Of a DNA stretch of 61,697 bases, positions 49,761 to 55,571 are shown piece after piece. The notes beneath the pieces were generated by a model, which was given only the letters and a program-made list of their open reading frames with translations, ran no database searches and had not been told where the DNA came from. Position 1 is the first letter of the stretch. Each line of letters begins with the position of its first letter. The position numbers were made by a program, and so were the translations under genes. Source of the stretch: Mycobacterium sp. (GTDB lineage Bacteria > Actinomycetota > Actinomycetes > Mycobacteriales > Mycobacteriaceae); assembly GCA_036519055.1 (NCBI GenBank), contig DATDLZ010000074.1, forward strand, positions 1-61,697, written 5' to 3'.

Positions 49761-51920
49761 ATGGCAGACAAGTCCCACAGTTCGAACGGCGCAGGAGCAG
49801 CTCCCGCCGTAGACGATCCGGCCGCCGTCCGGAACGTGGTGCTGGTAGGCCCGTCCGGCGGCGGCAAGACCACCTTGGTCGACGCGCTTCTTGTCGCGTC
49901 CGGCGTGTTGTCCAGACCCGGCTGTATCGCCGACGGCACCACGGTCTGCGATCACGACGAGGCCGAGATCCGCCAGCAGCGTTCGGTCAGTCTCGCTTTG
50001 GCGTCGCTGTCGCACGACGGCGTCAAGGTCAACCTCGTCGACACCCCCGGCTACGCGGACTTCGTCGGCGAATTGCGGGCCGGGTTGCGCGCCGCGGACT
50101 GCGCGCTGTTCGTGATCGCGGCCAACGAGGACGTCGACGAGCCGACGAAGTCACTGTGGCAGGAGTGCAACCAGGTCTGCATGCCCCGAGCCGTGGTGAT
50201 CACCAAACTCGACCACGCCAGGGCCAACTACCAGAATGCGCTCGCGGCCGCGCAGAATGCGTTCGGCGACAAGGTTTTACCGCTCTATCTCCCTACCGGT
50301 GACGGCGTGATCGGTCTGTTGTCGCAGACGCACTACGAATACGCGAACGGCAAGCGGACCGCCCACGCGCCCGACGCCTCCTACGCCGATCAGATCGAGG
50401 AAACCCGCGGCACGTTGATCGAGGGAATCATCGAGGAGTCCGAAGACGAATCGCTGATGGAGCGTTACCTGGACGGCGAAAAGATCGACGAAGCGGTGCT
50501 GATCGACGATCTGGAGAAAGCAGTCGCCCGCGGCTCGTTCTTCCCGGTGATTCCGGTCTGCAGCGGCACCGGCGTCGGCACCCTGGAACTACTGGAGGTG
50601 GCCACCCGCGGATTTCCGTCCCCGGCGGAACACCCACTGCCCGAGGTGTTTACGTCGCAAGGTGCCGCGTTCACGAAGGTGACTTGCGGCTCCGAGTCGC
50701 CGCTGCTGGCCGAGGTGGTGAAGACGACGTCGGACCCCTATGTCGGCAGGCTCAGCCTGGTCCGGGTGTTCTCCGGGACCATCAGGCCCGACACGACCGT
50801 TCATGTGTCGGGCCATTTCTCGTCGTTCTTCGGCTCGCCAGACGACGCCGGCCCCGATTCTTTGGCCGGCCACGTGGACCACGACGAGGATGAACGCATC
50901 GGTGCGCTGTCCTTCCCGCTGGGCAAGCAGCAGCGGCCGGCATCGATGGTGCTGCCCGGCGACATGTGCGCCATCGGACGTCTGAGCCGGGCCGAAACCG
51001 GCGACACACTCTCCGACAAGGCGCAGCCGCTGGTGCTCAAGCCGTGGATGATGCCGGAATCATTGCTGCCGGTGGCGATTCAGGCACATGCCAAGACCGA
51101 CGAGGACAAGCTGTCGGTCGGGCTTGGACGATTGGCCGCCGAGGACCCGACCCTGCGGATCGAGCAGAACCCGGAGACGCATCAGATCGTGCTGTGGTGC
51201 ATGGGCGAAGCCCATGCCGGTGTGGTGCTGGACGCACTGGCCAACCGCTACAGCGTCTCCGTGGATACCGTCGAGCTGCGGGTACCGCTGCGAGAAACCT
51301 TTGGCAGCAAGGCGAAAGGCCACGGCCGGCACGTCAAACAGTCCGGTGGACACGGGCAGTACGCGGTGTGTGACATCGAGGTCGAACCGCTACCCGAAGG
51401 CTCCGGGTTCGAGTTCCTCGACAAGGTGGTCGGCGGCTCGGTGCCGCGCCAGTTCATCTCGAGCGTCGAGAAGGGTGTGCGCGCTCAGATGGAAAAGGGT
51501 GTGCACGCCGGTTATCCCGTCGTCGATATCCGGGTCACCCTGCTCGACGGCAAGGCGCATAGCGTGGATTCCTCAGATTTCGCCTTCCAGATGGCCGGGG
51601 CGCTGGCGCTGAAAGAAGCCGCGGCCGCGGCGAAGCCGGCGCTGCTCGAGCCGATCGACGAGGTCTCCGTGCTGATACCCGACGACCTGGTCGGCGCCGT
51701 GATGAGCGACTTGTCCGGGCGTCGCGGCCGGGTAATGGGGACCGACACGGCCGGCAACGACCGCACATTGGTGAGATCCGAAGTCCCACAGGTTGAGTTG
51801 ACCCGTTACGCAATCGATTTGCGCTCGCTCTCACACGGCGCGGCCTCGTTCACCCGCACCTTCGCTCGGTATGAACCGATGCCAGAATCCGCTGCCGCGC
51901 AGGTGAAGTCCGCGGGCTGA
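49761..51920 (+). CDS. fusA2: Elongation factor G-like protein EF-G2
   Basis: GPSGGGKTT, DTPGYADF, KQSGGHGQY, HSVDSS. Confidence 0.95.
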   Translation: MADKSHSSNGAGAAPAVDDPAAVRNVVLVGPSGGGKTTLVDALLVASGVLSRPGCIADGTTVCDHDEAEIRQQRSVSLALASLSHDGVKVNLVDTPGYADFVGELRAGLRAADCALFVIAANEDVDEPTKSLWQECNQVCMPRAVVITKLDHARANYQNALAAAQNAFGDKVLPLYLPTGDGVIGLLSQTHYEYANGKRTAHAPDASYADQIEETRGTLIEGIIEESEDESLMERYLDGEKIDEAVLIDDLEKAVARGSFFPVIPVCSGTGVGTLELLEVATRGFPSPAEHPLPEVFTSQGAAFTKVTCGSESPLLAEVVKTTSDPYVGRLSLVRVFSGTIRPDTTVHVSGHFSSFFGSPDDAGPDSLAGHVDHDEDERIGALSFPLGKQQRPASMVLPGDMCAIGRLSRAETGDTLSDKAQPLVLKPWMMPESLLPVAIQAHAKTDEDKLSVGLGRLAAEDPTLRIEQNPETHQIVLWCMGEAHAGVVLDALANRYSVSVDTVELRVPLRETFGSKAKGHGRHVKQSGGHGQYAVCDIEVEPLPEGSGFEFLDKVVGGSVPRQFISSVEKGVRAQMEKGVHAGYPVVDIRVTLLDGKAHSVDSSDFAFQMAGALALKEAAAAAKPALLEPIDEVSVLIPDDLVGAVMSDLSGRRGRVMGTDTAGNDRTLVRSEVPQVELTRYAIDLRSLSHGAASFTRTFARYEPMPESAAAQVKSAG

Positions 51921-53121: not shown

Positions 53122-54063
53122 ATGGTAGCCGCACAAGCGCGAGCAGTCCGCTTCGACCGTTACGGCGGGCGCGAGGAGTTGTACGTGGCCGATATCGATC
53201 GGCCGTCGCCCAGTGCCGGCGAGGTGCTGGTCGAGGTTCGCGCAGCCGGCATCAATCCCGGTGAGATCGGCATTCGCAGCGGGGCACTGCACGAACGATT
53301 CCCGGCCACCTTCCCGTCCGGCGAGGGCAGCGATCTGGCCGGCGTCGTGCTCGAGGTCGGCGACGGCGTCAGCGATTTCGCCGTCGGCGACGATGTGCTG
53401 GGTTTCAGTTTCCAGCGCTCGAGCCACGCCACCCACGCGAAAGTCCCGGTCGACCAGCTGATCCACAAACCTGCCGAGCTGAGTTGGGAGGTCGCGGGTT
53501 CGCTATACGTCGTCGGCGTCACGGCCTACGCGGCCGTTCGCGCTGTCGCGCCGCAACCGGGTGAGACCGTCGCGGTCTCCGCCGCGGCCGGAGGCGTTGG
53601 CAGCCTGGTGGTCCAGCTGTTGGCCCTGCGCGACGTGCGGGTGTTGGGTATCGCATCGTCGGGCAATGCGCAGTGGCTCCGCGCCCACGGCGTCGAGCCG
53701 GTCGAATACGGCGACGGGTTGGCACAACGGCTGCAGCAGGCCGCACCGGACGGCATCGACGCCTTCATCGACCTGTTCGGACCGGACTATGTGCAGCTGG
53801 CGGTCGACCTCGGCGTACCACCCGAGCGGATCAACACCATCATTTCCTTCGAGAAGGCCGCCGAGGTCGGCGCGAAAAGCGAAGGCAGCGCTGAGGCGTC
53901 GACACCGGCGGTGCTGACCGAGATCGCCGATCTGGTCACTTCCGGCGCGCTCGACTTCGATGTCGCCGCGACCTACCCGCTCGACCGGGTCGTCGACGCG
54001 TTCGCAGAACTCGAGCAACGACACACGCACGGCAAGATCGTTCTGCTGCCTCAGGTTTCGTGA
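53122..54063 (+). CDS. NADP-dependent MDR oxidoreductase
   Basis: AGINPG, GSDLAG, SAAAGGVG, GKIVL. Confidence 0.9.
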   Translation: MVAAQARAVRFDRYGGREELYVADIDRPSPSAGEVLVEVRAAGINPGEIGIRSGALHERFPATFPSGEGSDLAGVVLEVGDGVSDFAVGDDVLGFSFQRSSHATHAKVPVDQLIHKPAELSWEVAGSLYVVGVTAYAAVRAVAPQPGETVAVSAAAGGVGSLVVQLLALRDVRVLGIASSGNAQWLRAHGVEPVEYGDGLAQRLQQAAPDGIDAFIDLFGPDYVQLAVDLGVPPERINTIISFEKAAEVGAKSEGSAEASTPAVLTEIADLVTSGALDFDVAATYPLDRVVDAFAELEQRHTHGKIVLLPQVS

Positions 54064-54069
54064 CGCTGG

Positions 54070-54396
54070 TTAGGACGCGGTGGCCTGGCCGGCCAGGCCG
54101 CGGTGCTCGTCGACGGCGCTGACCAGTCTGGCTTTCTGCGCGATCCGGCTCCGGTAGTACGACCACGGCTGACGCTCCTCTACCGGAACGCCGACCATCT
54201 GGTCGAGCAGGTTGGTGGCTTGCAGCGCATCGGCGAGATGGCGCTGCAGCCTACCCAGATCGCTGAGCACTTTGAACGTGTCGTCGCTGGCGGTGGTGGG
54301 AATGCTGCCGTCCGCGAGGAGCTCCAACGCACTGAACAGGGCAGCGCGGACGTCGCCGCAGGCTCGATGAATCTGACGCTCGGGGTTGGGACGCAT
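54070..54396 (-). CDS. Hypothetical 108-aa soluble helical protein downstream of the M-box
   Basis: GAGGAG RBS 6 nt before ATG 54396; no recognisable family. Confidence 0.6.
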   Translation of the reverse strand: MRPNPERQIHRACGDVRAALFSALELLADGSIPTTASDDTFKVLSDLGRLQRHLADALQATNLLDQMVGVPVEERQPWSYYRSRIAQKARLVSAVDEHRGLAGQATAS

Positions 54397-54492
54397 GATC
54401 GTCTCCTCAGGGGAAGCCCGACCCATCGCTGTAGGCGAGTCCAGCCACCGCCAATTGTAGGTCGGCACAACAGAACCGACATCCGGGGAGGC

Positions 54493-54573
54493 TCAGGCGA
54501 CGGCGGGAAGACCGCTACCGGATCGGGACGAAATGGATTTCCAATATGGATGCGGACTATCGCTCGGACTCAT
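54493..54573 (-). CDS. 26-aa leader peptide MSPSDSPHPYWKSISSRSGSGLPAVA
   Basis: Strong SD GAGGAGGTGA (54581-54590) 7 nt before ATG; below the ORF-track size cutoff. Confidence 0.65.
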   Translation of the reverse strand: MSPSDSPHPYWKSISSRSGSGLPAVA

Positions 54574-54657
54574 ATCGCCCTCACCTCCTCACGGCCAGGA
54601 CACACGGGGGTGTCACCACAGCGCACGCATGACAGGGGGTTGGCGCCTGACGGCGAC

Positions 54658-54827
54658 GCACCCCCATCGTCGGAGCTTCGGCACTGCACGGCGTATCCGG
54701 TGTTGCACCCGGAAGCCACTTGGGCTCAACCCTTAGGTCGGGAAGAGCTGTCCTGACCCGGGGCGTCTCTCGACGTTCGGGGTCAGTGGCCTGTATCCGC
54801 GCAGACGCCTCACCTACCGAGGTGCTT
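54658..54827 (-). ncRNA. M-box (ykoK leader) Mg2+ riboswitch aptamer
   Basis: Minus strand AAGCACCTCGGTAGGTGAGGC...ACGTCGAGAGACGCC..GGGTCAGGACAG..TAAGG..GTGCCGAAGCTCCGACGATGGGGGTGC has the ykoK signature blocks; P1 GCACCTC/GGGGTGC closes. Confidence 0.9.
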
Positions 54828-54911
54828 GCCGGTCCATCCTCGCACCACTATCAATGCTCGTCAAACATGGTAGAGGCCAATTCTCAGGGCCGCCTGGCTA
54901 GGCTCGACGGC

Positions 54912-55571
54912 ATGGCCACCACACTGCAGGATCCTCGAGTCGCCGAAGCCCTTGAACGGATGTATACCGAGTCACGCGAACAGATGTCGTTGCTGCGCGA
55001 GAGGCGCCCCAACATGTCCGCGGCCAGAACCGTCCAGGAACGCGCCGACGCCATGAGCGAGTTCTACATTCCCGTGACGCCCGAGTCCGGCCAGCTGTTG
55101 TACTCGCTGGTGCGGGCAACCCGTCCGGCGACCGTCGTGGAATTCGGTATGTCGTTTGGCATTTCGGCGCTGCATCTGGCGTCAGCGGTCCGCGACAACG
55201 GCACTGGCCGCGTGGTAACGACCGAGATCAGCGACACCAAGATCGCCGCCGCCAAGAAGACGTTCGCCGAAACCGGGTTGGATGACCTGATCACCGTGCT
55301 GGAAGGCGACGCGCTGAGCACGCTTGCGGATCTGGACGGACCGGTCGACTTCGTCCTGCTCGACGGCTGGAAAGAGCTGTACCTGCCGGTGATCAAGCTG
55401 CTCGAGCCGAAACTGTCTCCCGGAGCCCTTGTCATCGCCGACAACACCGAGAGCGCGGACGCACGGTCTTACCTCGACTACGTCCACAACAGCGAGAACG
55501 GCTACGTGAGTTTCAATTTCGCCGTGCGGGAGAGCGACAGCATGGAACTCAGCTGCCACGCCGGCGTTTAG
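54912..55571 (+). CDS. O-methyltransferase (class I SAM-dependent)
   Basis: VEFGMSFGIS, GDAL, LLDGWK, IADN. Confidence 0.9.
   Translation: MATTLQDPRVAEALERMYTESREQMSLLRERRPNMSAARTVQERADAMSEFYIPVTPESGQLLYSLVRATRPATVVEFGMSFGISALHLASAVRDNGTGRVVTTEISDTKIAAAKKTFAETGLDDLITVLEGDALSTLADLDGPVDFVLLDGWKELYLPVIKLLEPKLSPGALVIADNTESADARSYLDYVHNSENGYVSFNFAVRESDSMELSCHAGV

Follow-up and report, generated by a model that had tools for sequence, protein, structure and literature searches.

A mycobacterial M-box unit carrying a distant relative of mycobacteriophage proteins, probably captured into a magnesium-uptake operon

Behind a complete M-box on the minus strand of a Mycobacterium contig (DATDLZ010000074.1 of assembly GCA_036519055.1, analysed over positions 1 to 61,697, hereafter the window of 61,697 nucleotides) lies the gene of a soluble 108-aa protein that belongs to a conserved Mycobacterium family and is distantly related to the mycobacteriophage proteins of phrog_666. 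Its surroundings in related genomes make it probable that a duplicated operon for magnesium uptake (M-box/PE/NRMT) captured this phage-related gene. The reading of the unit as a whole, namely a low-Mg2+ M-box unit whose captured protein serves as a soluble accessory of an NRMT-type transporter, is tentative and falls short of an even chance. The wider idea that a mycobacteriophage gene has been domesticated into the Mg2+-starvation regulon of one mycobacterial branch at the start signals of a PE gene (of an esx gene in a sister subfamily), and that the resulting protein is a soluble, novel regulator of Mg2+ demand or uptake which outlived its transporter, is a possibility somewhat below even. 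The riboswitch and its uORF2 are already known. New proteins of magnesium homeostasis have been discovered by following M-boxes, NrmT among them, and the one in the window points at an unstudied soluble family, for which low Mg2+ is a condition that can be tested and NRMT a possible partner. A search of the full-text literature found no description of the 108-aa family, of its phage link or of capture at a PE start; a gene of this kind could nevertheless appear, labelled "unknown function", in the Mn2+-type class of PMC12810186 (Fig. 1B or supplements).

Organization of the M-box unit

The unit and its neighbours comprise the following features:

53122..54063, plus strand: convergent zinc-type (MDR) oxidoreductase, a neighbour outside the unit
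54070..54396, minus strand: 108-aa soluble helical-hairpin protein of an M-box-linked family, a distant relative of phrog_666
54394..54407, minus strand: SD and ATG of a former PE-like start, fused to the 108-aa ORF by a 44-nt deletion
54493..54573, minus strand: uORF2 of 26 aa, Rv1805A-type with Pro7 (ORF list and leader comparison)
54581..54590, minus strand: SD2 of the 26-codon ORF, GAGGAGGTGA, its core invariant in 36/36 aligned leaders
54605..54614, minus strand: C-rich candidate anti-SD, predicted to pair with a free SD1
54659..54668, minus strand: G-rich SD1-like stretch, candidate anti-anti-SD, in the 3' strand of the closing helix of the aptamer (element names from PMC12810186)
54655..54828, minus strand: complete M-box (ykoK) aptamer, RF00380, 148.7 bits, E 7.9e-34
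54836..54844, minus strand: extended -10 (TGc) and GAGGAT (54841-54836), 7 nt before the aptamer
54859..54864, minus strand: -35 hexamer TTGACG of the predicted promoter, with TTGA(C) at the same place in 40/40 linked leaders
54912..55571, plus strand: divergent SAM-dependent methyltransferase, a neighbour, start inferred at 54912

The complete ykoK-type aptamer proposed in the initial annotation of the minus strand was confirmed by an Rfam covariance search, in which the match covered model positions 1-169 of 169 with no broken pairs marked and far exceeded the cut-off of 44 bits. It is the sole Rfam match within the window. The candidate promoter suggested in front of it (TTGACG and GAGGAT at a spacing of 17 nt) proved to be conserved in position, even though its match to sigma70 is poor and it goes undetected in a generic sigma70 scan (0 sites). 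In fact, the permissive pattern TTGAC-N16/18-xAxxxT lies 7-8 nt before the aptamer in 40/40 distinct leaders linked to the 108-aa gene; among other mycobacterial M-box leaders, 32/33 have it at a distance of 5-11 nt. One promoter type is thus found across mycobacterial M-boxes (72/73 leaders), with a near-perfect TTGAC -35, a spacer of 17-18 nt, usually a TG, and a weak xAxxAT -10, and it resembles the motif reported for the gca and rv0115A promoters (PMC12810186).

At its other end the unit converges with the oxidoreductase, as previously noted, whose stop codon lies only 6 nt away. Unlike the ykoK-type M-box of Bacillus subtilis, that of the window has no intrinsic terminator as an expression platform, and no terminator-like site (0) was detected in 53900-55000. 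Soil metatranscriptome contigs overlap the unit, among them one of 918 nt spanning 53822-54741 and another spanning 53868-54589; such contigs carry neither strand nor level, and therefore transcription of the unit is not demonstrated by them. In the six RNA-labelled runs, coverage falls to near zero upstream of ~54840, whereas it extends further in one run of unknown kind, which provides a weak hint. By analogy with the pe20 M-box, the unit is predicted to be switched on at low magnesium. A 719-aa ORF (window 49761-51920, plus strand), which by eye resembles an elongation-factor-G-like GTPase, is no more than a few kb from the unit in 19/46 loci.

The 26-codon ORF as a general element of mycobacterial M-box leaders

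Both the strong SD (54590-54581) and the 26-codon ORF (54573-54493) that had been picked out downstream of the aptamer stand. According to PMC12810186 (2026), a conserved uORF2 with an invariant Pro7 follows mycobacterial M-boxes (Rv1805A, Rv1535A, Rv0115A), is controlled by an SD1/anti-SD/SD2 translational platform plus Rho and encodes a peptide without known function; in the pe20 leader of Mycobacterium tuberculosis it is the directly controlled, well-translated ORF. The window leader shares with the pe20 and rv1535 leaders described there the aptamer, the layout of SD1, C-rich anti-SD and SD2, the short uORF with Pro7, the lack of an intrinsic terminator and, as in the rv1535 type, a possible cargo gene that is small and functionally uncharacterised. 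Hence, by its conserved SD2, its position downstream of the aptamer and its conserved N-terminus with Pro7, the 26-codon ORF fits the uORF2 as defined in PMC12810186. In predicted folds, release of SD1 leaves SD2 more open in 22/39 leaders and less open in 2/39, whereas the SD2 of the window leader is unchanged, being 0.61 unpaired in both predicted states.

The same uORF2 is present behind almost every M-box fetched, before PE genes, the 108-aa gene or genes for MTAALYDEVV-type proteins, which we take to be Rv1535-like, and its length is exactly 26 aa in 63/73 leaders whatever gene comes after. The suggestion that the peptide is a special output of this unit is therefore not supported, as it corresponds to the general M-box uORF2 already described in PMC12810186. 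In a rival reading, the peptide would be the real output, in line with a hypothesis put forward for Rv1805A in that paper, with the 108-aa gene as a passenger. The fixed length agrees with it, as do the direct control and good translation of uORF2 in the pe20 leader. However, uORF2 varies to the same extent at each of the three codon positions (0.31/0.29/0.28; 29 non-redundant sequences) and its pN/pS is 0.69 (37 sequences) versus 0.24 for the 108-aa ORF, a pattern of conservation that does not resemble selection on a protein. Moreover, no phenotype was found for the peptide in PMC12810186, and the 108-aa gene can hardly be a passenger because its dN/dS in the window clade is 0.07. The peptide as the real output is consequently very improbable, and uORF2 would mainly play a role in cis that depends on its translation and length. 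This pattern across codons is of interest for deciding whether uORFs of the Rv1805A type work as peptides or as cis elements. A structured-RNA reading of uORF2 was also considered, and dropped because RNAalifold gave no conserved structure on 36 uORF2 regions.

A conserved family of soluble proteins outside the known M-box classes

The second SD (AGGAG at 54407-54403) and the 108-aa ORF (54396-54070) were likewise correctly recognized, and so was the absence of a transmembrane helix, the highest Kyte-Doolittle 19-residue mean of the protein being 1.03. Its AlphaFold model (pLDDT 81.8) is a soluble helical hairpin (residues 5-30 and 39-68) followed by a third helix. The protein had been taken for an orphan, which is incorrect: its homologues form a Mycobacterium family of 186 clusters at 90% identity, the named ones among the 120 clusters listed being "hypothetical", and 16 matches were obtained among 50% representatives. 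Members occur in 25/400 Mycobacterium genomes including the source genome, five weak genus matches with internal stops (L056-L060) having been left out as chance, and in none of 300 further genomes (24 of them in the genus) of an order-wide search. The ORF is clearly conserved, with a median dN/dS of 0.16 over 45 family sequences and the pooled value of 0.07 in the 8-sequence window clade.

The association of this family with the riboswitch is tight. An M-box lies upstream, in sense and 256-354 nt away, in 42/46 GTDB loci; among the rest, one is on a short contig and three have no M-box, including a frameshifted copy and a fusion. Rfam also confirmed the M-box in 19/24 non-self loci from the genus search. 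In the converse direction, HMMs of the family run against six-frame ORFs of 30 M-box loci retrieved nothing but its two true members at E<1. The cargo in the window is thus neither a PE nor an Rv1535-like protein as behind the pe20 and rv1535 leaders, and the family falls outside the four M-box classes described in the text of PMC12810186, the closest being its "Mn2+-type" class, whose transporters look NRMT-type in the loci examined here.

Annotation resources gave little for this protein. No Pfam family was matched at E<=1, PE and WXG100 included, and searches of NCBIfam, PHROGs and PDB sequences with the protein or its alignment, as well as a plasmid search, returned no match. Foldseek of the model against the PDB gave nothing at E<=0.001, and VIA-align detected generic helical bundles only, the best at Z 9.9 to GPCR helices; its match to EsxEF (Z 7.8, rmsd 2.1, 72 aligned, rank 25) is of the same generic helical kind. 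The ESM Atlas yielded one unnamed cluster at 0.78 for the 108-aa protein and nothing informative for a 68-aa relative.

Some copies deviate from the common arrangement. One of them, at L105:5011-6396, is an in-frame fusion between the family domain and an N-terminal portion of cobalamin-independent methionine synthase, with no M-box nearby. The copies at L102, L107, L050, L051 and L055 have neither the usual start nor an M-box in the available DNA, two of these loci being frameshifted, and they are possibly decaying. Copies without an M-box adjoin pckA in Mycobacterium attenuatum and Mycobacterium innocens.

Linkage to NRMT-type transporters

In the window the gene next to the unit is convergent and the unit contains no NRMT, so that its only ORFs encode, as the initial annotation stated, a micropeptide and a soluble uncharacterised protein. 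The description of the output as "not a transporter" is correct for the window unit and does not extend to its relatives, and the associated view of a unit separate from transport is not supported. A gene of the NRAMP family lies directly downstream of the family gene in 17/46 loci (two of them frameshifted) and a C-terminal NRAMP remnant in 2 more, while NRMT sequence is absent in 27/46 from the available downstream DNA, some contigs being short. The linked NRAMP genes score far below the MntH cut-offs, and DxxG in helix 1 together with TxxA in helix 6 was found in 6/6 transporters inspected. These residues constitute the NRMT signature (PMC8806188), and on this sequence basis the genes are assigned to the NRMT (Mg2+) type. 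Since such a gene follows in 17/46 loci, the absence of a transporter in the window would describe a derived loss. M-box-controlled NrmT is a Mg2+ importer, usually accompanied by a soluble MgtE-like companion gene (PMC4072509), and the 17 relatives reproduce this order of M-box, soluble-protein gene and DxxG/TxxA NRAMP gene. They differ in that an unrelated helical protein takes the place of the usual MgtE N-terminal/CBS fragment, and the window in that the transporter is gone.

The source assembly, which is 66% complete, holds a second M-box. Its leader is 81% identical to the window leader over 317 nt and, beside an eccA-like gene on contig C50, it drives uORF2, PE, PPE and NRMT. Between the PPE and NRMT genes of that contig (L134:6200-6260) a frame of 17 codons begins like esxM and finishes like esxN; it is probably what a deletion has left of a pair of esx genes. 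In Mycobacterium fragae, two tandem NRMT-type genes follow the family gene (L083:6389-9931).

A second group of small proteins occurs at the same position. Four loci (L012, L013, L020, L029) encode, after uORF2, basic proteins of 60-70 aa with a T[PA][QE][ED]R motif that HMMs of the 108-aa family do not match. An NRMT gene follows in at least 3/4 (L012, L013, L029), and the L029 protein opens with a fused PE-like start (MAFVVTQ).

Probable capture at a PE-like start

The start region of the family carries PE-like remains. A PE-like mini-ORF lies ~45 nt before the gene in 34/46 loci, with the consensus MEFLVTQ as compared with MSFVTTQP, and 18/34 of these mini-ORFs exceed the 99th percentile of 3613 background N-termini for PE likeness; the window clade kept only the SD and ATG. 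Back-to-back M-box pairs were found at L088, L095, L104 and L135, where the other side faces PE or PPE genes. A sister subfamily, which forms one clade with the M-box-linked family next to the distant relative P0017 (supports 98/87 and 96/87 in two trees), begins like esxN and is located between genes that we take to be esxM- and esxN-like. At L133 it lies inside a run of M-box, PE, PPE, esx, the gene itself, esx, MgtE_N/CBS and NRMT. The NRMT linkage, the PE-like start, the back-to-back pairs and the context of the sister subfamily together indicate that the transporter-free state of the window is likely derived and that the 108-aa gene is the newcomer in the operon, later kept after loss of the transporter. 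In this comparison the M-box-uORF2 leader behaves as a portable cassette, with the start codon of a PE gene as the site where small genes are captured.

These start signals raise the question of secretion. With its helical hairpin, the protein could assist ESX-5-type secretion or be one of its cargoes, having replaced PE/PPE or Esx proteins in the Mg2+ operon, and act on envelope permeability, in keeping with the position of both subfamilies at the start of a secretion-substrate gene (PE or esxN-like), with eccA adjoining L095 and L135, and with the two long antiparallel helices of the AlphaFold model. On the contrary, neither PE nor WXG100 is matched in Pfam, the alignment contains neither WxG nor YxxxD/E, presumably the motifs of secretion substrates, the PE remnant is usually out of frame and deleted in the window clade, and the PE5-PPE4 rows of Foldseek have E above 0.5. 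A role in secretion is therefore regarded as improbable.

Proposed mechanism and a possible partner

By analogy with pe20, at high Mg2+ the aptamer would fold, freeing the anti-SD to mask SD2, and Rho would terminate transcription. At low Mg2+ the aptamer would likely unfold, uORF2 would be translated, termination by Rho would be prevented and the 108-aa protein would be made. Once produced, it may act as a soluble NRMT accessory, in cis in many relatives and in trans in the source genome, where it would bind or tune the NRMT behind the second M-box (C50). Arguments for such a role come from the position of the gene in the slot before NRMT, from the sister subfamily within an NRMT operon and from the second, unrelated small protein in the same slot. 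The proposed role is modelled on MgtS and MgtR, two small proteins that are induced, or co-expressed, when Mg2+ is low and that bind a transporter and tune it, although they are single-pass membrane peptides of enterobacteria whereas the 108-aa protein is soluble, and no homology is expected. A transporter-accessory function is best held as a cautious working idea, distinctly under an even chance. The dN/dS values in lineages without the transporter (0.07, 0.19 and 0.14) versus with it (0.14) indicate a selection as strong or stronger in its absence. Because selection is not relaxed without the transporter, a transporter-independent job fits equally well, and the phage relatives are not beside transporters in the phage records examined.

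Relationship to mycobacteriophage proteins

The phage connection of the family is transitive and relies on intermediates at the profile level. The 108-aa protein itself does not match the HMM of phrog_666 at E<=1, while P0017 (77 aa) reaches E 0.19 over its full length and matches gp63 of a Mycobacterium abscessus prophage (E 1e-5) and Fowlmouth gp50. The phrog_666 HMM recognizes these two proteins (E 1.7e-9 and 1.1e-18, respectively), and hhalign of the family profile against them gave probabilities of 96 and 89. Small chromosomal members, which share the PWSYYR motif, bridge the phage and 108-aa families. The best viral Foldseek match, at probability 1.00 and E 0.2, has 86 residues and comes from phage Cuke, whose gp46 is of the same length (86 aa). 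A viral scan with P0017 alone found nothing, and genes 62-77 of L5 gave no family match.

Both groups share a helix-loop-helix core and an initial N-x-x-[RK]-Q (Serenity gp75, Adephagia gp82, Fowlmouth gp50 and prophiGD02-2 gp63 on the phage side), and the closest phrog_666 members also end in LL-x-x-MV...PWSYY like the 108-aa family. They differ in size (64-86 versus 108-112 aa), in their tails (acidic EEF(G) in the phage proteins, basic in the mycobacterial ones) and in context, phrog_666 being found in the right arm or early region of phages. Taken together, these profile-level comparisons show, through intermediates, that the 108-aa family is distantly related to phrog_666. In the trees, which do not settle which way the gene moved, the phage sequences fall on one side of a weak branch (72/78) and the root is a midpoint; diversity and a patchy distribution would argue for a move from phage to host. 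Phage proteins of phrog_666, a family without an assigned function, occur in 658 mycobacteriophage records, and a large unannotated phage family thereby becomes tied to a host regulon. If the domestication described above is correct, the target of the 108-aa protein would give a function to a gene family in over 600 mycobacteriophage records.

The main rival to the accessory role is a host-modulator of phage origin, since domesticated, that would lower Mg2+ demand under Mg2+ scarcity by binding to some housekeeping machinery (ribosome, tRNA/RNA repair, RNA polymerase or ATP synthase); secretion, phage defence and the peptide as output are less likely. This explanation comes close to the ribosome/ATPase modulator suggested at the outset, for which no direct support was obtained and which stays among the rivals. 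The strong selection that persists after transporter loss is in agreement with it. Furthermore, the nearest small chromosomal relatives follow an RlaP nucleotidyltransferase (PF10127) in 3/4 genomes with a full-length match, the same coupling appears in 3/8 IMG/VR loci, RlaP acts on damaged RNA (PMC12776372), and the phage members of cluster K are located one or two genes before an RNA ligase. Against these observations, no RlaP was found in the 66% complete source genome, the C-terminal EEF(G) motif of the phage proteins is replaced by a basic tail, no fold match is informative, and toxicity screens offer no encouragement: Adephagia gp82 was tested and found non-toxic (PMC11373665), and Hammy gp81 and Waterfoul gp76 do not appear on the toxic lists in the text of PMC10700055 and PMC9339283. 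A host-modulator is on balance rather unlikely. A toxin reading as such is weakened by the same published screens, which cover distant relatives and in which poor expression can mask effects.

Protection against phage, for instance by superinfection interference, with a Mg2+ control merely borrowed from the leader where the gene landed, would be in line with the abundance of relatives in phage records and with those in M. abscessus prophages beside a BrnT-type toxin-antitoxin pair. Nevertheless, both subfamilies stay inside M-box operons, and among the three loci that lack an M-box are one frameshifted copy and one fusion, which makes this possibility decidedly improbable. Compared with it, the accessory role remains our preferred, if tentative, reading.

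Finally, a two-gene cassette of an RlaP nucleotidyltransferase and a phrog_666-like protein of 68-70 aa is found at L138:7729-8699, L139:7219-8242, L126 and L113-L115; viral contigs of IMG/VR carry it, and so do chromosomes in which no prophage genes are visible.
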